Shown here: in pieces, positions 5,492 to 60,873 of the stretch
How the letters are laid out: the number at the start of each line of letters is the position of its first letter
Position numbering within the stretch: the stretch's first letter is position 1
NCBI GenBank assembly: GCA_963823335.1
Contig: CAWGLD010000001.1
Location: 1,504,001 to 1,568,000, forward strand
DNA length: 64,000 nt
Direction: 5' to 3'
From: an uncultured delta proteobacterium
Lineage (GTDB): Bacteria; Desulfobacterota; Desulfobacteria; Desulfobacterales; B30-G6
Made by a program: the position numbers and the translations under genes
Notes under the pieces: model-generated
The model's input: only the letters and a program-made list of their open reading frames with translations
Databases searched by the model: none
What the model was told of the DNA's origin: nothing

Positions 5492-5700
5492 GTTTGTTTC
5501 ATGATTTTATTTTCAAAATTAATCAGCTTCGGGTCACAATACAGATAGATGGAACCACCTGCCATATAAAATTATTGATACCATGATCCGTGACTTTCAG
5601 ACCATGAAAACTTCACAACCACAAGATATGGGATTGGAGAATATCTGGCAAAACCGTTGATTACGCTAATAAATATTGATGTCCGTAAAGTTGTGATTAA

Positions 5701-5864
5701 TGGAGACAAATCCAGTTATCAAGTTCAACGGCAATATTACCGATACCATTCGGTCATCCCCACGGTACCATGAGAACCACTATTAATTCAAGATTCGGTC
5801 GGTTGTGATTATTTTCGCACACCGGTAATTTTTTAGGGCCTGATATCTAAATTTTCGTAGGAGA
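5701..5864. repeat. Island ~165 bp repeat, copy 1
   Basis: TGGAGA...GGAGA bounded; invariant core GTTGTGATTATTTTCGCACACCGG at 5802-5825. Confidence 0.9.
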
Positions 5865-5894
5865 TGGACGACCTGACTATTTTGGAGCACTTAT

Positions 5895-6842
5895 TCATTG
5901 ACTATCTGTGGCTTGACACTTTGCTATAGTAACACAATTTTTTCCAGCCTCCTTAGCAGCAAAGAGGCATTTATCAGCCGCTGTCATAAAATCATTTAAA
6001 TCGCCTCCATAATTAGCAACACCACAGCTTACTGTAATTCCATCTAAAGATTGTCCATCAGAACTTGTGAATTGAGTTTCAGAAATCTTTGTTACAAATA
6101 TTTTTGCTATTTCCTCTGCCTTAATAATATTACATCCGGGAACCAAAACTGCAAATTCATCTCCACCATATCGGAAAACCATATCTGATCTGCGGAGGGT
6201 GTTTTTTATTATTGCAGACACTTCTTTTAGCAGTATGTCTCCTGTTTGATGCCCATACGAATCATTGTAGTGTTTGAAGTTGTCAAAATCGATCATCATA
6301 AGAGACAGTTCTTGTTTTTCCCTGTCTGCTTTACTTGCTTCTTCGATCAATTTCAAATCAAAATAGCGTCTATTATACAAAGAGGTCAGCGAATCCACCG
6401 TTGCCATCGCTTCGAGTTTGATGTTTAACTCAAGCAATTGCTTTGTCACTTCATCAAGCTTGCCCATCTTGTCCTCAAGATCGCCATGGATTTCATTAAA
6501 TACTTCATGGATATCTGCCAACTCGTTCTGATCCTTTTTTAAAGGATGCTGTTTTCCTTTTACCCATGCTGATTTAGATCTAATCTCCTTTGATAGTTTT
6601 TCGATTGATCCTATCCAGTTATACCCCAATGCGATACTGAGTAATGAGGGTATAAGCATGGCTATCACACCATATGTAAAGACGGGATTAAGAGCATGCA
6701 GTTGGGTTTCGCCAAGCATTGGTGTCACATATCGATAGACGACAAAAACCATTATCAGAAGCGGCAGGGCTGATGATAAAAGGTAAAATACCGTAAAATT
6801 TCTCCTAAAGTTTGCTTGAAATATTGAAGATAGAAACGTCAT
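5895..6842 (-). CDS. Membrane-anchored diguanylate cyclase (GGDEF)
   Basis: Two TM helices and a coiled coil, then DSLTSLYNRR, DFDNFKHYND.YGH..GD, RxxD I-site and RYGGDEF. Confidence 0.93.
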   Translation of the reverse strand: MTFLSSIFQANFRRNFTVFYLLSSALPLLIMVFVVYRYVTPMLGETQLHALNPVFTYGVIAMLIPSLLSIALGYNWIGSIEKLSKEIRSKSAWVKGKQHPLKKDQNELADIHEVFNEIHGDLEDKMGKLDEVTKQLLELNIKLEAMATVDSLTSLYNRRYFDLKLIEEASKADREKQELSLMMIDFDNFKHYNDSYGHQTGDILLKEVSAIIKNTLRRSDMVFRYGGDEFAVLVPGCNIIKAEEIAKIFVTKISETQFTSSDGQSLDGITVSCGVANYGGDLNDFMTAADKCLFAAKEAGKNCVTIAKCQATDSQ

Positions 6843-7285
6843 TATAGCCTCCTGATAATTATGAACGGCCTGTAGCTACCGATATTTGGAACTGATAAGA
6901 ACAAGTTGAGGATCAGACCAGCTTTGATAATGATACTCAGTTTCAGATCAGGTATGAATTGGATACAAGGTACATACATGGTTTGGTGAGGTGGATCAAG
7001 TTTTGACAGTCTCCGCATTACAGATACATGGAGACAAGTGCAAGTTTAGCAGGCCCGTAAAAACCTGCGATAACATTGTATTCCACTCTCCATTTGGCTA
7101 TTCTTACCCTTGCAGATATCATTTATCTTACAATTTTGCAAAAAAGGGAAAATCGCCGAAACGATTCTCCCTCATGATAACATAAAAATGCAGGTTGCCT
7201 AAAAATGGCTACGGTGGTGATATGCTAAAAAACCTGTAAACATTGCGAACTGGGCATAAGTTGGTGGTATTGCCATTCAAAAATA

Positions 7286-7317
7286 AAAAAAGGCAGGGCC
7301 GAATGACCTTGCCTTTT
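7286..7317 (-). terminator. Probable intrinsic terminator after ORF 7348-7644
   Basis: AAAAAAGGCAGGGCC...GACCTTGCCTTTT hairpin with a U-tract on the minus strand. Confidence 0.55.
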
Positions 7318-7347
7318 CTGTGAACCCTAACTGGCAACTTATTGTTT

Positions 7348-7644
7348 TCACCCCAATACCTTTAGGGAATCTGGAACAGTCATCAATGGTTCAAGTTTCC
7401 ACGATGTTCCTTCTATTTGCGTTAATGGAAACATCGTCTTCGCTATCTCCAATAGCGCTTCGTCCTCTTTCCCCTTCTCTGTAAATATTAGGTTGTAACC
7501 CTTGTACCCACATTCATAAGAACACGAAAATGTCTGCCACTTCTTTATGCCTGCCGTGGGTGGGTTCGCTGCTAAATCTAAAATGCATTTTTTCCACTCT
7601 TCGGTTTTATCCATCGGCATTGTATAGGTCCCCATAAATATCAT
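7348..7644 (-). CDS. Hypothetical protein (98 aa)
   Basis: Clean ORF with a strong AAGGAGGT RBS. Confidence 0.75.
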   Translation of the reverse strand: MIFMGTYTMPMDKTEEWKKCILDLAANPPTAGIKKWQTFSCSYECGYKGYNLIFTEKGKEDEALLEIAKTMFPLTQIEGTSWKLEPLMTVPDSLKVLG

Positions 7645-7748
7645 ATTTTATTACCTCCTTTTCAAACGTTGGTTTCCAATAATGTTTCCAATTTAGGGCA
7701 TATTGATATCATCCTGCCCTTTCTTAACTTTTAATCCGAATAAAAATT

Positions 7749-8249
7749 CTATGGCGTTTCCATTTCACCTTCCACTTCAACATAACTTTGTTGTGGAGCT
7801 ATCATGTAACTAGTCCAATTTCCCCCTCCAGTTGCTCCTTCAAATTTTCCGGTACCGCCTGTCACTGTATACACACCTTTCCATTGACTCTTTGAAATCG
7901 GTTTTCCTTTAAATGATCTGTTTGATTTATCGCCATCTTTGTCGGTATGTACTCCATAACCCGTCAAATACATTTCTTCAGGCTTGCTTGGGTTCACATT
8001 CATGAAACCGACACTTCTATCGGCAAATTTTTCTCCGCTTATTTCATTAGCAAAGATTGAGTGTTGTTCATAAATTATAATTATATGCCCTTCAGCATCT
8101 CCAACTTCAATTTGATGCATTTTAGTCGTATAGCCCACGCCATGTGACTTAATCTCAAGTTTTTCTCCTGCTATTGCAAAGTCAAGTGCAATAAACCCAA
8201 ATACAAAAACAACCACAGTTGTGAGAATAACTAATTTTGATTTAAACAT
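7749..8249 (-). CDS. Hypothetical secreted beta-rich protein
   Basis: Signal peptide; D.DGD and GGTGKFEGATGGG motif; AAGGAGG RBS. Confidence 0.8.
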   Translation of the reverse strand: MFKSKLVILTTVVVFVFGFIALDFAIAGEKLEIKSHGVGYTTKMHQIEVGDAEGHIIIIYEQHSIFANEISGEKFADRSVGFMNVNPSKPEEMYLTGYGVHTDKDGDKSNRSFKGKPISKSQWKGVYTVTGGTGKFEGATGGGNWTSYMIAPQQSYVEVEGEMETP

Positions 8250-8635
8250 TGTTGCGCCTCCTTTCCCAAAAGCGTAAGACCGTTAGCCAACATGCGGTTA
8301 AGAATGTGATTATCTCTTGCCATCATTATGACATAAATGCCTCCACAGTATGCACGAATCCTCTGGAGGCTTCATATTGGCAACTTCAGATGTCCTATTA
8401 TCACATAGAGTATCATTTTGTTTTTGTGGTTTATTTGATGGTGAATTGTGTGGGCAGATTGAGAGTCTGGTCAGACAAGTTACAGCTGCGAAGATTCAGC
8501 TTCAAACTAGATGTGATTTAGATATAATGTTAAATACCTATATGATTTAATTGGTTGTGTCAAGAAATGAATATTTTAGACGTTTTAGAGGGTGTGTTTT
8601 GCAGGAAATCCTGCCATACTAGCACCGTTGATACA

Positions 8636-8801
8636 TGGAGAACACCTGACATTTTGAAATATCAGGCAATATTACCGATACCATATGGTCATCGCCAAGG
8701 TATCACGGTAGGGCCTATCAATGCAAGATTCCGTCTGTTGTGATTATTTTCGCACACCGGCAATATTTTTAGGGGTCTGATAGCTACAATATTGTTGGAG
8801 A
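8636..8801. repeat. Island ~165 bp repeat, copy 2
   Basis: TGGAGA...GGAGA bounded; invariant core at 8737-8760. Confidence 0.9.
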
Positions 8802-8944
8802 CATCATGCTATTTTTATCAGTTCGATATGTTTTCAGTTTTTGTCCATATTTTCCGCAATGGAAAACTTTCACACACGTTTGGGTGTGCGTTAGAGATAC
8901 CTTGAAAATGACCGTTATAGCCATAGGCATTAGTTGGATTTCCC

Positions 8945-9142
8945 TCAACTCATTTGGTACGAATCACATTGGGAACATCGGTCATTCAATTCCTGTGCCC
9001 TCTGGTCGTCTAATGCAAAGTTTGATGGATCGTTGAACAGGGACAGGATCATTTCCGGGTTTTTACTGTACAGACACTGACCTGCATTTAGATTGTCGCA
9101 TTTGGTGAACAGTAGTGTTTTATCCGATCCTTGGTTGGGCAT
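8945..9142 (-). CDS. Small Cys-containing hypothetical protein (65 aa)
   Basis: ORF with C...C...CxxC; AAAGG upstream; family not recognised. Confidence 0.45.
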   Translation of the reverse strand: MPNQGSDKTLLFTKCDNLNAGQCLYSKNPEMILSLFNDPSNFALDDQRAQELNDRCSQCDSYQMS

Positions 9143-9378
9143 GGTAAAACCTTTTTTGAAGAGGTTATAGGTAAAGCGTCAATAAGCCAATGTGAAAAAG
9201 CCCCCAAGATGGAGAAAGCACTGGCAAATGAATTATCTTCTCAGGGGCTTTTTACAGGGCCGGAGGTGCCGCTGGGTGGGCAAACCCAGAGCGCATCCCT
9301 GTAATTATTTTCTAATTCAAATTGACAAGACAATCAAGACTACTTAATAACCCATATAATACCTATACAATATGGGTG

Positions 9379-10362
9379 TTATGCGAGGGATGTCAGGTGG
9401 GACTGTAGATTGACTTTTGTATTTTTTATTCCGAGCTTATTTCTTATATTTTCCCTATGGCGTGCTACTGTTTTATGTGAAAGATTTCGGATCGTTGCTA
9501 TTTCTTTTGTCCCCTTGCCCTGTCTTATAAGAGAAGCCACTTTTATTTCGGCAGGCGTTAATCCGAAAGAATTAGAGGACAGTTGGAGGGAAAATGGTGA
9601 AACAATTTCGTGCAGACTTGATTCTATAACATCAAGCAAGGCAATTTGTGTTTCGGTGAGTTTGCCTTTTTTTAATTTTTCGACATAGGGGAGCGCCAAT
9701 CTTTTTACATTGGACAGTACCTGTTCTTGCAAGAGTATTTTATCTTCTTCTCTTTTTTCTAACAGGACGTTCAGGGCGACATTTATCTCTTCAAGCTTAT
9801 TTGTCTTTGATTCTAATTCTTTGGTTCGATCTTTTACCATGTATTCCAGATTTTCTGAATATGCTTTTATCTTTTCCTCTGCTTGTTTGCGCTCGGTGAC
9901 ATCACGGGTGATGCCTATGACACCGGTAGGCAAACCGGCTTTATCTCGCAGAAAAGAAACTTTAACCTCAATTGGAAGGACGCTGCCGTCTTTGCGTATT
10001 GTATCCAGTTCCAAAACAATTGACCGGTCCGGCAAGACCCCTGGATCGCCGTCACATCCAATCTCCTCTGAAAAGGTTTGTATCACTTTTTGATAAGACT
10101 TAGGTGTGAATGCTTGTTCCAAATCAATTTGCATAAGCTCCTCAGGTTTATATCCCTGCAGCTTCTTAACCGATGGGCTAATATAGGTAAACTTGAGGTC
10201 CATACCTAATATCCAGATGACATCGGTTACGTTGCTTTCTAGCAATTGATACTTGTGTACGTTTTCTCTCAATGCTTCTTCCGTACGCTTACATTCCGAT
10301 TCAATTTTCTCTAATTCAAGAATCCGCTTTTCTAATTCAGCGTAGGTTGGCTTTTCAGACAT
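9379..10362 (-). CDS. PAS-domain LuxR-family transcriptional regulator
   Basis: SEKPTYAELE coiled coil; PAS/PAC (YISPSV...GY.PEEL...RKDGS...RDVTERK); C-terminal LTPAEIKVA...GKGTKEIA...HRENIRNKLG HTH. Confidence 0.92.
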   Translation of the reverse strand: MSEKPTYAELEKRILELEKIESECKRTEEALRENVHKYQLLESNVTDVIWILGMDLKFTYISPSVKKLQGYKPEELMQIDLEQAFTPKSYQKVIQTFSEEIGCDGDPGVLPDRSIVLELDTIRKDGSVLPIEVKVSFLRDKAGLPTGVIGITRDVTERKQAEEKIKAYSENLEYMVKDRTKELESKTNKLEEINVALNVLLEKREEDKILLQEQVLSNVKRLALPYVEKLKKGKLTETQIALLDVIESSLHEIVSPFSLQLSSNSFGLTPAEIKVASLIRQGKGTKEIATIRNLSHKTVARHRENIRNKLGIKNTKVNLQSHLTSLA

Positions 10363-10658
10363 GAAATACACCTATATTTTTCAAATATTATGAATTGTAG
10401 ATACTTGCATTATTGTTAGGTTACACCTAACTCAAGTATGGTTGAAGCTATTGTGAAACGTGTGAACGAAAGACTGAACCGGGTGTATTGTGGTGCGGTG
10501 TGTTAGAAGGTTAGGTCAAATTCTCGCCTGATTCAGATTAAAGCGCACAATATCAATAAACTATGAAAACCACAATGGGTCTTTCAAGTACTTTGAATGG
10601 GTTGTGATGTGTTCTGAAAAACCTTCTGAAAACCAAATATTGGGCAAGTAACGATAGA

Positions 10659-10822
10659 TGGAGACAAGTACAGTTATCAAGTTTGATGCAAATATTGCCG
10701 ATACCATCTGGTCATGCCCACAGTACCACGTGAGCCACTATGAATACAAGATTCAGTCGGTTGTGATTATTTTCGCACACCGGCAATTTTTAGGCACTTG
10801 ATATCTACCGAATCGTTGGAGA
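10659..10822. repeat. Island ~165 bp repeat, copy 3
   Basis: TGGAGA...GGAGA bounded; invariant core at 10760-10783. Confidence 0.9.
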
Positions 10823-11189
10823 AAGTCCCATCCTCTTACCAAAAAGATGTTACCCGTTTTCTTTCTCCCGCCATTTGCCAAACGCTCCTCGTGATGACTC
10901 CTCGTATTTTGGGAGATCATCTGTAATTTCATAGTAATCACCAGCCTGCGAAAGCCAAACGTGTCCCATTGTTCTTAGCCCTGTCGGCAGATTAAGTGTC
11001 CCAGCAGAAATCCATATTTTGTCTCTGGTTTCCCTCGGATCCCAGAACAGGCTGGAACCGCATTCTTTACAAAAACCACGGTAAATGCCTGGTTGTCAAT
11101 CGGCTTCCAAAAATGACCCACTACCGGCGTGCAAAATTGACCCACCCCAGCACATAAAAAGTTAATGTAAATAACATCAGATCCCTCCG

Positions 11190-11921
11190 CTAAGAGACTC
11201 TGTCTTTCATCCTCCAGCTTTCATTTCCGGTTTCAATGATTTCACAATGGTGCGTAAGACGGTCCAACATGGCCGTGGTCATCTTTTTGTCACCAAAGAC
11301 CTGCGGCCATTCCCCAAACCCCAGGTTGGTGGTAACGATAACAGATGTCTGCTCGTAGAGTTTTGAGATCAGATGGAACAACAATTGGCTGCCATTTTTT
11401 GAGAACGGCAGATAGCCCAGTTCATCAAGCACGACCAGATCAAACCGAACGAGTTGGGATGCCAACTTGCCGCCATCACCTGCCAGCTTTTCTTGTTCCA
11501 GTTCATTAGCCAGGTCCACCAAGTTGTAGAACTTTGCACGTGAGCCGTCTCTGATGGTTTGGGCAGTTATGGCAATGGCAAGATGAGTTTTTCCTGTACC
11601 CGTACCTCCGACCAAAATGAGATTGGAGTGACCTTCCAAAAAATCGCCTTGATACAGGGATCTAATCTGCAGTTCATCCACTCCGGCTTCTTCGAAGTTA
11701 AAGGTGTCAAGAGCCTTCATCGCCGGGAAGCGGGCCTGCCCCATGCGGTACCTGATGCTACGCAAATGCCGCTCGGCAGCTTCAGCTTCCAGAAGTTCAA
11801 GAAGGATCTTTTCGGGAGTTGATCGCTGCTTTCGTCCGCTGGTGAGAACCTCATCATAGACAGCATGCATCCCTCTCAGCTTGAGCGTTTCCATGGTTTG
11901 CAAAATATTATTTCGCAGCAT
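11190..11921 (-). CDS. istB: IS21 helper ATPase
   Basis: [11 protein letters not shown]alker [12 protein letters not shown]alker B, TTNL.F.EW.QVFGD and AMLDRLTHH. Confidence 0.95.
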
Positions 11922-12096
11922 GCTGCCTCCGATCGATTAACATCTCATAGCGATGACAATCGGCAATAGGTTCATTTATCAGCATCAGTTGCTCAGGCAG
12001 ATCAATCACCGTTGTTTGTTCTTTATCCTGGCTGCGGTGCAAAATGTTCAAGACCACTTCCTTGCTGACGACCGGCATTTTCAACGCCTGTCGACA
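11908..12096 (-). pseudogene. istA: 3' remnant of IS21 transposase
   Basis: CRQAL...SKEVVLNIL...L.L..EP.ADC.RYE, a typical IstA C-terminus overlapping the istB start. Confidence 0.75.
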
Positions 12097-12633
12097 CAAT
12101 GGGATGATATTAATTTTGAGGAACGATATATTCATATTCAAAGGGGATTGGCACGGGGAAAAATATCATACCCGAAATCAGGTAAAGACCGAAAAGTCGA
12201 TATGAGTCCACAACTGGCAGAAACCCTGAAATGCTTAAAAGGTACCTTCAGGCTGAAGATTGTGGCCGACAACCCTGAACCTGAATATGTCTTTAAGAAC
12301 AGTAGCGGCGAATTGGTTAATTTGAACAATTGGAGAAAGCGGATTTATTTCAAGGTGATTGAAAAGGCAGAAATCCGAAAGATAAGGATTCACGATCTGA
12401 GGCATACATATGCCACCCTTAGGATCAATAAGGGTGACAACATAGCCGATGTGTCAAATCAGCTTGGACACCATTCAGTCAAGTTGACATTGGACGTTTA
12501 TCACCATTGGATGCCAGGTGATAAGAAAGCTGAAGTTGACGCCCTGGATGATCTTTCCCCGATGCACCCAAATACACCCCATATGCACCCTGCCACTTCA
12601 GAAAGTAAAAAAGGGGCAGCCAGTGTTGGCTAA
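12097..12633 (+). pseudogene. 5'-truncated tyrosine recombinase/integrase
   Basis: QWDDINF...PKSGKDRKV...YVF...IHDLRHTYAT...LGHHSVKLTLDVY (HxxR, H, Y present); the first catalytic Arg box and N-terminal domains are missing. Confidence 0.88.
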
Positions 12634-12647: not shown

Positions 12648-12722
12648 TGGTGATCCCACCGGGATTCGAACCCGGGTTACCGGCGTGAGAGGCCGGCGTC
12701 CTAACCACTAGACGATGGGACC
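12648..12722 (-). tRNA. tRNA-Glu(CTC)
   Basis: GGTCCCATCGTCTAGTGGTTAGGACGCCGGCCTCTCACGCCGGTAACCCGGGTTCGAATCCCGGTGGGATCACCA; anticodon CTC; encoded CCA. Confidence 0.97.
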
Positions 12723-12823: not shown

Positions 12824-12899
12824 TTGAAGAACCTCGCAGCATGCGAAGCACTGCCGAACGGCAGAACCTGCGGGGTTAGCGCTCGCTGTTGCGGTTCAA
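12824..12899 (-). repeat. TTGAA...TTCAA palindromic mini-element, short form (copy A)
   Basis: 76 bp; reverse complement of the copies at 21441, 29442 and 51027. Confidence 0.85.
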
Positions 12900-13120
12900 A
12901 AAAGATTTTGAAGATTCTTCTTTCTGCCTTTTCTATATCCGAAGATGAAATATATGGGCGAGCCCACAAACGGGATCGCGGCGATCAAACCCCAGAGGGC
13001 TTTTTTCCCGATGGTGCCGAAATCTTTCTGAAGGCAGTCGACGATGGCCCAGACTGTCAGAAAGAAAAAGGGTACGGTCAAAAGAACTACGACACCCACT
13101 GTTTTTAATTCTTGTATCAT
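12896..13120 (-). CDS. PLDc N-terminal-domain-like small membrane protein
   Basis: WAIVD...F...KALW...IPFVG..IYFIFG pattern. Confidence 0.75.
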   Translation of the reverse strand: MIQELKTVGVVVLLTVPFFFLTVWAIVDCLQKDFGTIGKKALWGLIAAIPFVGSPIYFIFGYRKGRKKNLQNLF

Positions 13121-21391: not shown

Positions 21392-21440
21392 TGCGACAAC
21401 GTCGCGATTTGCAGCGTCGTATAACGAATGTATTGGTTTT

Positions 21441-21516
21441 GGGAACCGTAACAGCGAGCGTATTTCCTGCAGGTTCTGCCGTGCGGCAGTGCTTCGCATG
21501 CTGCGAGCTTCTTCAA
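21441..21516 (+). repeat. TTGAA...TTCAA mini-element, short form (copy B)
   Basis: GAACCGTAACAGCGAGCG...GGTTCTGCCGTGCGGCAGTGCTTCGCATGCTGCGAGCTTCTTCAA. Confidence 0.85.
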
Positions 21517-27543: not shown

Positions 27544-29436
27544 ATGCTTAGATTAATGCGGGATTACGCCACGAGCTGGTTGATAAAAATCATCCTCGGG
27601 GCTATTGTGGTTGTTTTTGTTTTCTGGGGGGTTGGGAGTTTTCGAGACCGAAAAGCCACTGTTGTTGCGAGCGTCAATGGTGACGCCGTCACGCTTGACG
27701 AATACCGGTCCACATACAACAATCTGCTGGAACAGATGCGGCAAAGATTTGGCAACAACCTGAATGAAGAGGTGTTGCAGATGCTTCAGTTGGACCAGCA
27801 GGCACTGGATCAGTTGATCCAGCAACGACTCCTGATGCAGGAAGTGGCAAGACTCAATTTCAGGGTAACGGATGAAGAAGTTGTCAGGGCTATCCAAAAT
27901 ATCAGTTCATTTCAAACCAATGGCGTGTTTGACAACCGTCTCTACACAGCTGTTTTGAACTACAACCGGATGACGCCCGAAGGTTTTGAAGCGGCCCAAA
28001 AAGAAAGCCTGCTCATCGAAAAGCTGCGCACCTACCTTTTCAGCAATTTCCAGGTATCTGAAAACGAGGTGCGAGAATATTATAACTGGAAAAATGTAAC
28101 CGTGTCCATCGATTACGCGCTTTTCGATCCAGAGACATATCAGGATATCGAACTGACAGACGCAGGCTTGGAAACCTATTTCAACGACCATAAAGAAACC
28201 TACAAGACCGATCCCCTGCTCAAGGTTCAGTATCTTCATTTTGATCCGCAGGATTACATGGCCGAGGTTCAAATTTCCGCGGAAGAGATAGAATTCTATT
28301 ACCTTGACAATCAAGAACAATTCGCGACACCCAAAACGGTTGAAGCCAGACACATTCTCTTCAAAGTGGATGCCGAAGCACCCCAGGAAGTCATTGATGC
28401 AACGAAAGCCAAGGCCGAAGATGTCCTCGAACTGGTTCGAAAAGGAGAAGATTTTGCATCCATGGCCAAACAATATTCCGAAGGGCCATCCAAGGAAAAT
28501 GGTGGTCAATTAGGTGCATTCAAGAAAGAAGATATGGTGGCCCCGTTTGCAGAAAAGGCGTTTTCCATGAAACAGGGCGAGGTGAGCGAACCGGTGCGAA
28601 CCCAATTCGGGTGGCACCTGATAAAAGTGGAAAAGGTTAATGAGGCGTCGGCCCGGTCTCTGGAAGATGCTGAAAAGACCATTCGGGACATTCTTAGCAA
28701 AGACAAGACAAAAACCCTGGCCTATGACAGGGCAGAAGCGTTTTACGAAACGACCCTGGAGGGGGATCTTCTTGCCGAGGTCGGAAAAGAAATGGGCCTG
28801 GAGGTCAAAACCACGGCGCTTTTTTCCATGTCGGGACCTGAAAAATCTGTCAGGAATCCGAAGGTATTCGCCGATGCAGCCTTTACTCTTTCCTTGAATC
28901 AGATCAGTGATATACAGGATTTTGAAGATGGCTTTTACATTCTTCAGGTCATCGAATCTATCCCCGGGAAGATACCAGAATTGGGGGCTGTAAAGGATGC
29001 GGTTGCCAGGGACATGATGAAAGAAAAGCAGGTTGCCATGGCCGGGGAAAAGGCAAGGGCATTTCTGACGATGTTGAAAAGCGGCACAACCACTGACAGT
29101 GCCGGATCCGAAACTGACGTTGTCTTTAAGTCCACTGAGTATTTCAAGCGCAACGACCAGATCAAAGATATCGGTTGGGAAAACGAGATTTCCCAGATGG
29201 CATTTACGCTTTCATCGGCTCAACCGCTTCCGGAAGATGTTGTAAAAGGGGAAAAAGGGTTCTATGTCATCCGTCTCAAGGATCGAAGATTGCCAGATTT
29301 GCAAGAATTTGATAAAGAAAAGAAACAGCTTCAGGAGACTCTGAGCAGGCAAAAGGAATTCAAAGCCTTTAATTTGTGGTTGTCAGAGACGCGCAAAAAA
29401 AGTGAAATTACGGTTCAAGAGGGGTTTGGAAACTAA
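27544..29436 (+). CDS. ppiD: PpiD-type periplasmic chaperone/PPIase
   Basis: N-terminal TM (FVFWG), SurA-N domain and parvulin (ARHIL...FASMAKQYSE...GG.LG...RTQFGWHLI). Confidence 0.88.
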   Translation: MLRLMRDYATSWLIKIILGAIVVVFVFWGVGSFRDRKATVVASVNGDAVTLDEYRSTYNNLLEQMRQRFGNNLNEEVLQMLQLDQQALDQLIQQRLLMQEVARLNFRVTDEEVVRAIQNISSFQTNGVFDNRLYTAVLNYNRMTPEGFEAAQKESLLIEKLRTYLFSNFQVSENEVREYYNWKNVTVSIDYALFDPETYQDIELTDAGLETYFNDHKETYKTDPLLKVQYLHFDPQDYMAEVQISAEEIEFYYLDNQEQFATPKTVEARHILFKVDAEAPQEVIDATKAKAEDVLELVRKGEDFASMAKQYSEGPSKENGGQLGAFKKEDMVAPFAEKAFSMKQGEVSEPVRTQFGWHLIKVEKVNEASARSLEDAEKTIRDILSKDKTKTLAYDRAEAFYETTLEGDLLAEVGKEMGLEVKTTALFSMSGPEKSVRNPKVFADAAFTLSLNQISDIQDFEDGFYILQVIESIPGKIPELGAVKDAVARDMMKEKQVAMAGEKARAFLTMLKSGTTTDSAGSETDVVFKSTEYFKRNDQIKDIGWENEISQMAFTLSSAQPLPEDVVKGEKGFYVIRLKDRRLPDLQEFDKEKKQLQETLSRQKEFKAFNLWLSETRKKSEITVQEGFGN

Positions 29437-29441
29437 ATTCG

Positions 29442-29517
29442 TTGAACCGCAACAGCGAGTGCATTTTCCGTAGGTTCTGCCGTGCGGCAGTGCATCGCAT
29501 GCTGCGAGGTTCTTAAA
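29442..29517 (+). repeat. TTGAA...TTCAA mini-element, short form (copy C)
   Basis: 76 bp; begins 5 nt after the ppiD stop. Confidence 0.85.
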
Positions 29518-35760: not shown

Positions 35761-35834
35761 ATCGCAGGTTATTTGGGCCCATTGGTTTTTCCCATTCCTT
35801 TCAAAACCCATGGGCTCAAATCTCTTTGCCTGGG

Positions 35835-35956
35835 TTGAACCGCAACAGCGAGCGCATTTCCCGTGGGTTCTGCCGCGGGGCTAGCGAGCGAATCTAAATT
35901 AGACAGAATTCCTTACGGTCGAAGATTCCTCGCAGCTTGCTGCGAGGAATCTTCAA
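35835..35956 (+). repeat. TTGAA...TTCAA mini-element, long form (copy D)
   Basis: 122 bp; same ends as the short form; terminal hairpin GAAGATTCCTCGCAGC..GCTGCGAGGAATCTTC; near reverse complement of 60697-60815. Confidence 0.85.
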
Positions 35957-49698: not shown

Positions 49699-51030
49699 AT
49701 GTGTGACACCTTTATAGCCATGCCGTCCAGCACCGCGGATGGGTCTGTTCTGTTCGGTAAGAACAGCGACCGGGAACCCAATGAGGCCCAGGCGCTGGAA
49801 TACCATCCGGGTTCCGCGCATCCTCCGGATTCCCGGGTGACATGCACGTATATCCAAATTCCTCAGGTGGATGAGACCTATGACATCCTGATCTCGAGAC
49901 CCTTCTGGATGTGGGGAGCCGAGATGGGGGCCAACGAGAAAGGGGTCGTCATTGGAAACGAGGCCGTTTTTACCCGTATGCCCATGGAACACGAGGGGAA
50001 GCTCACGGGTATGGATATCCTGCGGCTGGCACTGGAGCGCTCTGAAACGGCGGACAGGGCGCTGGAGGTTGCGATTCAACTCTTGTCGGATCACGGCCAG
50101 GGTGGTATCTGTGGGTATAGAAACCGCAAAATGGTCTATCATAACAGTTATATAATTGCAGACCCCGATAGGGCCTGGATCCTGGAAACAGCGGGTCCCA
50201 TGTGGGCTGCAGCCAGGATAAAGAAAACCTACAGCATCAGTAACGGTTTGACCCTCGGCGAGTCATTTGAAGAAAGTCATCCGGAGCTCATAACGCTTGC
50301 CAAAAAGCAGGGCTGGCTCAAAAGAGGTGAGACCTTTCATTTTGCACGCTGCTATTCAGACTGGCTTTATACGACCTTCTCAGCCAGCCGCAGGCGAAAA
50401 AGCAGATCGTCCCATCTGTTGAATCAGGCTTTGGGCACCCTGGTGCCGAGGGGCGCCATAGGGATTCTTCGGGATCACGACACATCCATGTATCGACCGG
50501 GAGGACACTTTTTGCAGGACCGTCTCTGCGCGCATGCTGCCAACAGCCTTACCAGAGATTCGGCCCAGTCCACGGGGTCTTTGATGGCTCATCTTACGCC
50601 GGGGCTTCAGACATACTGGGTCACAGGGACGTCTGCCCCCTGCACGGGCATCTTCAAACCCGTATGGTTTAACGACCGAGTTCTGCCGGATATAGGCCCT
50701 GAACCCGGTGATGCCTATGATCCCCGTTGCCTGTGGTGGTTTCATGAAGACCTTCACCGGGCAGTGCTGGAAGACTATGAATACAGGGTGTCGCTTTTTC
50801 GCGAGGAACGGGATGCCCTGGAAGACCGGTTTCTCGAGAGGGCCTCAAACCAGGGCGCTGAAAAACAGTATGACATCTCTCTGGCGGCCTTTGAGGAGGC
50901 CAGGATAAACACCGAGAAATGGATCAAGCGGGTAAAGGCCGCCGGCGTGCGGAACAGGGAAAACTGGGTGTACCGGCGTTACTGGAAAAAGCAGATCCAG
51001 CGTTCGATATCTACTGCGCTGGCGAAGTGA
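49699..51030 (+). CDS. C69 family (secernin-like) Ntn-hydrolase
   Basis: N-terminal MCDT nucleophile, FGKNSDREPNEAQ, WMWGAEMGANE.GV.IGNEA, GMD.LRLALER and YHNSY.IAD. Confidence 0.92.
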   Translation: MCDTFIAMPSSTADGSVLFGKNSDREPNEAQALEYHPGSAHPPDSRVTCTYIQIPQVDETYDILISRPFWMWGAEMGANEKGVVIGNEAVFTRMPMEHEGKLTGMDILRLALERSETADRALEVAIQLLSDHGQGGICGYRNRKMVYHNSYIIADPDRAWILETAGPMWAAARIKKTYSISNGLTLGESFEESHPELITLAKKQGWLKRGETFHFARCYSDWLYTTFSASRRRKSRSSHLLNQALGTLVPRGAIGILRDHDTSMYRPGGHFLQDRLCAHAANSLTRDSAQSTGSLMAHLTPGLQTYWVTGTSAPCTGIFKPVWFNDRVLPDIGPEPGDAYDPRCLWWFHEDLHRAVLEDYEYRVSLFREERDALEDRFLERASNQGAEKQYDISLAAFEEARINTEKWIKRVKAAGVRNRENWVYRRYWKKQIQRSISTALAK

Positions 51031-51103
51031 ACCGAAAAAGGGAGCGCATTCTCCGCAGGTTCTGCCGTGCAGCAGTGCTTCGCATGCTGCGAGGAATCGT
51101 CAA
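51027..51103 (+). repeat. TTGAA...TTCAA mini-element, short form (copy E, degenerate)
   Basis: TGAACCG...GGTTCTGCCGTGCAGCAGTGCTTCGCATGCTGCGAGGAATCGTCAA. Confidence 0.8.
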
Positions 51104-60696: not shown

Positions 60697-60815
60697 TTGA
60701 AGCTCCCCGCAGCAAGCAGCGGGGAATCTTCGACCTTACGGAATTCTGGCTAATTTAGATTCGCTCGCTAACCCCGCAGCAAGCTACGGGGAATACGCTC
60801 GCTGTTGCGGTTCAA
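60697..60815 (-). repeat. TTGAA...TTCAA mini-element, long form (copy F)
   Basis: 119 bp; two CCCCGCAGCAAGC..CGGGG hairpins; near reverse complement of copy D. Confidence 0.85.
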
Positions 60816-60873
60816 TAACAAGATTGCCAATCGTCAGTTGACTTTCACGTAAATGATACGTGAATAGATCTGC

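Follow-up and report, generated by a model that had tools for sequence, protein, structure and literature searches.

A repeated junction element in Desulfobacterales as the candidate site of an integron-like cassette system with a nested Xer-like recombinase

The junction element and its arrays

The window analysed here is the whole stretch of 64,000 nucleotides (nt) at G000:C1:1504001-1568000, where G000 is the 4.37-Mb genome of an uncultured delta proteobacterium. It contains a short series of gene modules separated by copies of a repeat, here called the junction element, which is the subject of this study. Repeat finding (family D1) placed three direct copies, all on the plus strand, at 5688-5864, 8623-8799 and 10646-10822. 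The initial annotation had recognized these three same-orientation copies, and the 85 matches found in the genome put the family far past chance.

Aligned with MAFFT, the three copies have a mean column identity of 80%. Each opens with ATGGAGA (5700-5706, 8635-8641 and 10658-10664) and closes with T(T/A)GGAGA, just as the terminal TGGAGA and GGAGA of the initial annotation would have it, and the conserved left box, GATAnATGGAGA, is longer than the TGGAGA first noted. Direct repeats bound the element, with GATAnATGGAGA at its left end and TTTTGTTGGAG at its right end, and the heptamer is always alike; terminal inverted repeats and attC-type R boxes are absent, as had been claimed. The body measures about 165 nt and the whole site about 170 nt. 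Conservation also extends beyond the boxes, with GATAnA 5' of the left box and (A)(T)ATC 3' of the right box. Inside the body, the 24-nt core GTTGTGATTATTTTCGCACACCGG is invariant in 3/3 window copies. The identity of this core, correctly noted for the window, does not hold across the genome, where the core is the best-conserved part of the element and yet occurs in TGCGA..TCGCA and TGTGA..TCACA variants. The core resembles a CRP/FNR operator (TGTGA-TTATTT-TCGCA), a likeness of sequence only.

The count of three copies was right as far as it went, but it overlooked a fourth, of which only the left box and a few bases remain (Table 1). Contigs from other samples run on past ~7042 into a repeat body (public sample sequence was available as contigs from 22 runs, four of which were compared with the window). 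A second dispersed repeat lies directly 3' of the remnant left box, at 7043-7300. Contig depth summed over this second repeat reaches 405 and 117 in the samples compared, the adjacent bins having roughly 2-16, and it has many 80-89% matches in the related genomes G001, G004, G005 and G007, some of them within arrays. An unrelated repeat of ~50-96 nt (families D2, D3 and D5) that ends in GCTTCGCATGCTGCGAG occurs elsewhere in the window at 21412-21507, 29413-29508, 35834-35881 and 50998-51093, with inverted copies at 12865-12902 and 60781-60818.

A profile built from the three window copies and run over the G000 contigs (E<1e-3) returned the 85 matches, 55 of them full length, which form about ten clusters on six contigs with a spacing of 0.7-5 kb. 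The profile search that the initial annotation had proposed thus finds matches clustered in co-oriented arrays: among neighbouring matches less than 7 kb apart, 60/63 have the same orientation. The genes between them mostly run the other way, with 79 open reading frames (ORFs) of at least 100 amino acids (aa) antisense to the repeat and 15 on its strand, and exactly one such ORF fills 37/58 inter-repeat segments. At 35/65 copies a gene has its stop no more than 100 nt away from the TTGGAGA end, compared with 268/2000 random places. Read along the genes, the order is ORF, stop, element, a leader of 100-300 nt and the next ORF. As in integrons, the cassettes are co-oriented and mostly single-gene, with a site at the 3' end of each.

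The module genes are mutually unrelated and include URO-D, SUI1, GDSL lipase, MFS, DnaJ, Ni-SOD, GNATs, PAS-LuxR, beta-lactamase-fold proteins, cytochrome c', SulP, choloylglycine hydrolase, adenylate cyclase-TPR paralogs and MttB; insertion sequences and group II introns are also found in the arrays. The adenylate cyclase-TPR proteins (590-1150 aa) are recurrent cassette genes, with at least six paralogs (G000:C1:103-105, 148-155 and 165-169 kb; C9:16-19 and 38-43 kb) that have a common leader (…GAAAACCAAATATCAG…) adjoining the left box. The gene for an MttB-type methyltransferase (L037:2034-3521, minus strand, equal to G000:C1:162034-163521) contains a single in-frame TAG, which is probably read as pyrrolysine because PylS is encoded in the same genome (TIGR02367, 326.6 bits, C2:79183-79914). 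A group II intron at L034:11426-11583 (G000:C1:96426-96583; RF02012, 79.5 bits), with a reverse-transcriptase ORF downstream, begins some tens of bases past a junction element's left box. Since a like intron-type flank adjoins seven element copies in four genomes, its position unchanged, the intron seems to home to the junction element much as class C introns do to attC. Group II intron targeting of attC is described in PMC7923331.

The family was searched in 41 related genomes, G000 included, and is present in 14 of them. G000 aside, these are 11/14 genomes of the same family and 2/26 of those that represent other families in the order; a single genome excepted, all are metagenome bins. Judged by related records, the carriers belong to the Desulfobacterales or are Desulfosarcina-like. 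Desulfosarcina alkanivorans PL12 has only one full copy and a recombinase remnant, arrays being absent. In a complete chromosome of more distant relationship (L108) there are two recombinase units, identical to each other, and some dozen fragments of modules, with no arrays at BLAST sensitivity. I was unable to identify a repeat match among the plasmids of PLSDB.

Where homology breaks

If the elements bound mobile units, homology between relatives should stop at their ends, and the initial annotation had predicted breaks exactly at TGGAGA. All ten junctions that could be resolved do lie at a terminal (A/T)TGGAGA box, none inside the body and 0/10 in the 24-nt core, which is not the break point. 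The ten comprise both ends of a duplicate on contig C7, the PAS-LuxR module in G000 and G007, both ends of a 790-nt segment in G001 and G000, and five single cases: two between G004 and G000, one between G007 and G000, one internal duplicate in G007 and a paralog at C1:146.6 kb.

In the C7 duplicate (213.4-214.7 versus 226.8-228.1 kb) identity is 99.7% along 928/928 nt of gene segment, one flanking body is 0.99 identical and the other 0.73, and identity begins and ends within GATACATGGAGA. The PAS-LuxR module of the window is 96-98% identical to G007 from ~9166 to ...GATAGATGGAGA at 10664, and past 10664, inside the repeat, identity falls to 72% and 63%. An inter-repeat segment with a gene of 235 aa is 99.2% identical between G001 and G000 over 790/790 nt, with a body of 0.78 identity on one side and, on the other, a recombinase-bearing unit in G001, both breaks lying at boxes. 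Because ordinary orthologs of these two genomes are only 79-90% identical, the segment has evidently moved between species recently. Among the single cases, one G004/G000 break lies at a right box, whereas the G007/G000 comparison, the other G004/G000 comparison and the G007 internal duplicate break at left boxes. The remaining one, the paralog of the PAS-LuxR leader at G000:C1:146.6 kb, runs through ...GATAGATGGAGA and then into unrelated, right-flank-like sequence with no body at all. Two more such box-only junctions were found at C1:1769462 and C1:1772632, and all three have the form GAT..ATGGAGA.ATC.

A systematic comparison of flanks and bodies used 97 full copies from G000, G001, G004 and G007. 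Every pair of copies with homologous left flanks (31/31) has bodies alike at family level only (0.67-0.83), many of these pairs having one group II intron flank in common. Right flanks are homologous in four pairs, two with a shared body and two without. Two further pairs have bodies 0.99 identical between flanks that are unrelated on both sides. Body and module together (two pairs), module alone (the 790-nt segment) and body alone (two pairs) are all seen, so that each may be taken to behave as a box-bounded unit. The ten junctions and the 99.2% segment have the pattern known from integrons, in which cassettes are gained, lost and shuffled exactly at their sites.

Other comparisons were less informative. 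A solo copy at C1:1737054-1737230 has a left gene conserved in 5/5 relatives (84-90%) and unrelated sequence downstream in all of them, giving no clean pair of filled and empty sites. In the four public runs the contigs are short unitigs broken at repeats, and the only joint with a side longer than 30 letters runs from 5830 to 8767 (depth 2.6), linking the copy 2 flank to another variant of the body.

The modules of the window itself were described by the initial annotation as co-oriented and unrelated, which holds, with the correction that the minus strand encodes all their genes, which therefore run antisense to the repeat in its written orientation (Table 1). The GGDEF gene has a counterpart in G007 (90% identity) that is not inside any array, and the 98-aa gene of module 2 is directly followed by a junction element in G002. 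Past copy 1 lies amtB; past copy 3 lie an IstB fragment, a truncated integrase and a tRNA, and the homology of G001 to the window stops at this tRNA. IstB stands at this island edge without its IS21 partner gene.

Table 1. Junction elements, gene modules and island edge in the window
Feature	Position	Strand	Details
Junction element copy 1	5695..5864	+	left box GATTAATGGAGA 5695-5706; core 5802-5825; right box TAGGAGA 5858-5864
Junction element copy 2	8630..8801	+	left box GATACATGGAGA 8630-8641; core 8737-8760; right box TTGGAGA 8795-8801
Junction element copy 3	10653..10822	+	left box GATAGATGGAGA 10653-10664; core 10760-10783; right box TTGGAGA 10816-10822
Remnant of a fourth element, left box and few bases	7023..7042	+	repeat family D9; bounds the GGDEF module
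Module 1: GGDEF diguanylate cyclase, ORF 5895-6842	5865..7022	-	domain search
Module 2: two genes without Pfam match, ORFs 7348-7644 and 7749-8249	7286..8629	-	ORF and domain search
Module 3: PAS-LuxR regulator, ORF 9379-10371, with leader	8802..10652	-	domain search; ortholog in a G007 array
Island edge: IstB (IS21 helper)	11190-11921	-	
Island edge: truncated tyrosine recombinase, unrelated to the nested recombinase	11953-12633	+	
Island edge: tRNA	12651-12722	-	

A recombinase nested in the element

What enzyme might act on such boxes? Phage_integrase matches number 11 in G000, and 5/11 lie in or beside arrays, two of these five being copies of one gene (96% identical). A complete recombinase gene at C1:163905-164735, on the repeat strand, stands between a left half of the junction element (profile positions 27-98) and a right half (145-228). 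The same layout of left half, gene and right half was found at eight further loci in other genomes, and at one more the right half lies 2 kb off. Two units from a single metagenome-assembled genome (L091 and L093) match each other between an ATTGAGA/ATAGAGA box and a TAGGAGA box, and their flanks are unrelated. The gene-less element thus shares both ends with a gene-bearing form, as a miniature inverted-repeat transposable element (MITE) does with its parent insertion sequence (IS). The co-occurrence of a particular recombinase, suggested by the initial annotation, is therefore borne out physically, by nesting within the repeat, and only in part across genomes, 7/21 of which have both.

The nested protein is a small two-domain tyrosine recombinase of Xer-like type. 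Its best NCBIfam model is archaeal XerA (102 bits, under the cut-off of the model), the closest solved structure is XerA 4a8e (E 3e-11), and its catalytic motifs (Arg, His-x-x-Arg, His and Tyr) can be aligned with those of both XerA 4a8e and XerD. Against the integron integrase model TIGR02249 it scores 34.6 bits, the cut-off being 265, and plasmid recombinases (PLSDB) are 34-35% identical to it at most. The IntDes subgroup was considered as the source of this enzyme and rejected, being restricted to Desulfovibrio and having an arm-binding domain; both features are given for the IntDes recombinases in PMC8138268. A second idea, that arrays start with the recombinase unit at their head, does not hold for L090, L096 and L120, where full repeats stand on both sides.

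The reading frame of the gene is unusual. It opens with ATG and some 20 residues that lead to a run of A, and the remainder lies in the +1 frame. The N-terminal region is available at 45 loci, 35 of them with a recognisable start, and a shift on the A-run is needed in 24/35 (A9 in 20, A8 in three and A10 in one). The gene is in frame in the other 11/35, 9 of which are without an A-run. The frameshift stays at one codon throughout 60-97% identity, and because of this constancy I judge it to be programmed slippage, either transcriptional or ribosomal, and not decay.

A candidate cassette system weighed against its rivals

I consider it somewhat better than an even bet that these arrays are an undescribed integron-like cassette system with TGGAGA as crossover core. 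Anatomy, arrays, break points at the boxes, body-less junctions, recombinase nesting and a conserved frameshift are directly seen, and together they suggest that recombination itself takes place and may be catalysed by the nested enzyme. The initial annotation had proposed that the repeat marks a cassette boundary or recombination site in a gene-capture system not recognised before, and the arrays, the box breaks and the nested recombinase all speak for it. The repeat would be a small element for site-specific recombination, here in its gene-less form, and an array would alternate 165-nt bodies with gene modules, a box standing at every boundary. Crossover by a dedicated Xer-like tyrosine recombinase would most likely take place in the direct heptamer (A/T)TGGAGA, its overlap sequence, and 'autonomous' copies would encode this enzyme, recoded, between their body halves. 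Recombination of two direct boxes would excise the DNA between them as a circle, and the circle could be inserted by recombining with any box, such that arrays would gain, lose and reshuffle modules, bodies, or body plus module. The body, with its 24-nt imperfect palindrome, several GATA/TATC motifs and possible long-range fold, would serve accessory functions or synapsis, and in autonomous copies would also provide the enzyme; the palindrome may act as a hairpin or a site of accessory binding, with the crossover elsewhere. Joined flanks in the box-only junctions, and logos of the flanks, give GATA-nA-TGGAGA-n-(T)ATC, in which, as far as sequence goes, inverted GATA/TATC arms surround the box.

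A number of observations count against this proposal. Scored with the G000-type query in 21 genomes, repeat and recombinase are both present in seven, the repeat only in five, the recombinase only in four and neither in five, and the repeat-only genomes include G005 and G012, with 25 and 32 first-look candidates. The difference between G000 and G007 at window positions 7661-9165 neither starts nor ends at a box. The family alignment contains no double compensatory base-pair changes that would speak for a folded site, and a classical core site cannot be drawn on the body because the body ends are not inverted repeats. Excision circles, empty-site polymorphism in one population and enzyme activity have none of them been observed. 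Gene conversion among 85 copies could mimic breaks at repeat ends, and the informative junctions are few, some of them from related genomes.

The best of the rivals, although I think it unlikely, is that the repeat is a MITE-like non-autonomous element, derived by internal deletion from a 1.1-kb recombinase-bearing element, which inserts at a preferred target behind genes; the genes themselves would not be mobilised, and the rearrangements would be due to homologous recombination or gene conversion. It would explain why autonomous and gene-less forms have both ends in common, why near-identical bodies (the two pairs at 0.99) occur in unrelated flanks, and, if they are empty targets, the box-only junctions. 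Recoding on an A-run is typical of IS transposases, which also fits. However, the half-sites GATAnA and (A)(T)ATC are present on all flanks, and a target so specific would not be expected to pre-exist behind ~85 unrelated genes. Nor does such an element account for a box-to-box segment that is 99.2% identical between species while the bodies differ on both sides, for the strong clustering and co-orientation of the copies, or for the absence of breaks (0/10) from the long conserved core, where homologous exchange would be likeliest. Compared more widely with MITEs and their parent IS, and with repetitive extragenic palindromic (REP) elements and REPINs with their RAYT, the junction element is similar in being an abundant gene-less derivative with ends common to a rarer gene-bearing form, and in an enzyme whose expression is tied to A-run slippage. 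It differs in lacking terminal inverted repeats and a target-site duplication of variable sequence, its ends being direct and of one constant heptamer, in having a tyrosine recombinase of the phage integrase family rather than a DDE or HUH enzyme, and in the arrangement of its copies, which are not scattered but stand behind genes in ordered, co-oriented arrays.

Much less probable is a REP-like, 3'-untranslated-region or antisense RNA element, or a portable regulatory module of CRP/FNR type (TGTGA-N6-TCGCA), kept for its effect on expression. The position just past stop codons would suit such an element, and the core is an imperfect palindrome whose variants at one pair (T.G, C-G and T-A) keep pairing only on the plus strand, antisense to the module genes. 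The consensus also folds better on that strand (-36.7 versus -27.8 kcal/mol). This is the strand that folds in attC sites, but with double compensatory changes missing a folded recombination substrate is no more than a possibility. The fold of copy 3, however, has z-scores of only -1.4 and -2.0, and besides the missing double changes the consensus fold contains only single changes of wobble type. Mutual information is mostly subfamily signal in the variable left part, and long-range complementarity within the body averages 7.5/10 and 4.6/6 pairs with no covariation. A pairing of flank with body (GATA before the left box with an internal TATC) was tried and rejected on 18/101 T-T mismatches and no covariation. 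Rfam 15 found nothing at its gathering threshold in the whole window apart from two tRNAs, and nothing even at E<=1 in 5500-11000; a known Rfam family, named beforehand as a match that would tell against a new system, was not found. Scanning gave no consistent promoter or terminator pattern, with a promoter-like site in one of the three copies and a terminator in 0/3, and sigma-54 and sigma-70 promoter readings, made by eye and by scan, were discarded as inconsistent among copies. The nested recombinase, the box-precise breaks and the arrays would be left unexplained, and the CRP-type module or non-coding RNA offered by the initial annotation as alternatives may be extra roles.

The last rival, attC sites of an unusual kind that belong to a canonical integron, its integrase being absent from the assembly (a cluster of attC sites lacking integron-integrase, CALIN), has in its favour a cassette-like architecture, true IntI in 5/21 related genomes and a group II intron that targets the site as with attC (PMC7923331), but is scarcely credible given that the best TIGR02249 match in G000 reaches 88.5 bits, far from the cut-off of 265, that repeat-rich G001, G004, G005, G007 and G012 are without IntI while IntI-bearing G009, G016 and G018 are without the repeat, and that the element ends are direct, not inverted. 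In the 21 genomes searched, IntI over the cut-off was found in G009, G010, G016, G017 and G018, where the repeat has 0, 4, 0, 3 (core-only) and 0 matches, respectively. None of eight IntI-like loci has the repeat within ~1.5 kb. True integrons (IntI loci L055-L062) and the junction-repeat system thus co-exist in one bacterial order.

How, then, would an integron-like cassette system of this kind relate to those already known? Like integrons, among them sedentary chromosomal integrons and CALINs, it has long co-oriented arrays of mostly single, unrelated genes with a homogeneous repeat after each, module exchange exact at the sites, a tyrosine recombinase and a group II intron that homes to the site. 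In attC, inverted core boxes R'' and R' at both ends pair in the folded single strand. The site here is ~170 nt with direct heptamers instead, its body is itself a movable unit, and body-less junctions exist. The enzyme is small, Xer-like and recoded, not IntI, and is nested in the site rather than beside attI. Integrons have a platform at the array head, where attI and the promoter Pc adjoin the integrase; here no separate attI-like site was seen, and the recombinase units of L090, L096 and L120 lie inside arrays. Mobile elements that exploit Xer or are Xer-like form a second point of comparison: the integrative mobile elements exploiting Xer (IMEX) at dif, the pdif modules of Acinetobacter plasmids and TnPZ/XerT of Helicobacter, named in part after PMC8138268. 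They too involve a simple Xer-like recombinase with core-binding and catalytic domains (CB+CAT) and short core sequences that recur directly on either side of the inserted DNA. As reconstructed, the box-only junction GATAnATGGAGAnATC, with inverted GATA/TATC arms round a centre of 6-8 nt, looks like a dif-type site on paper. Unlike these elements, the present one encodes its own enzyme instead of using host XerC/D, has a 165-nt body with an invariant palindrome away from the crossover, and occupies tens of sites per genome as gene arrays.

Full-text literature searches, judged by titles and the beginnings of abstracts, found no published description of such a system, its known kind being cassette arrays run by a tyrosine recombinase. 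The fuller claim is an even call: that sulfate-reducing Desulfobacterales invented the integron principle independently, with a recoded Xer-like recombinase nested in a ~170-nt site with a TGGAGA core, modules and site elements as cassettes, and box-to-box transfer of genes between species.

Textbooks present integrons, which are defined by IntI and attC, as the way in which bacteria gather single genes and reshuffle them. The arrays described here follow the same logic, with tens of cassettes per genome in several genera of environmentally important sulfate reducers, apparently through a simpler Xer-like enzyme, a different site and a site element that is itself mobile; software that finds integrons would miss them. 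If the proposal is true, gene-cassette capture would have evolved more than once, and a compact pair of recombinase and site, with a built-in expression throttle in the slip on the A-run, would become available for study. It would also help explain how signalling proteins, redox enzymes and a pyrrolysine-type methyltransferase spread among them.

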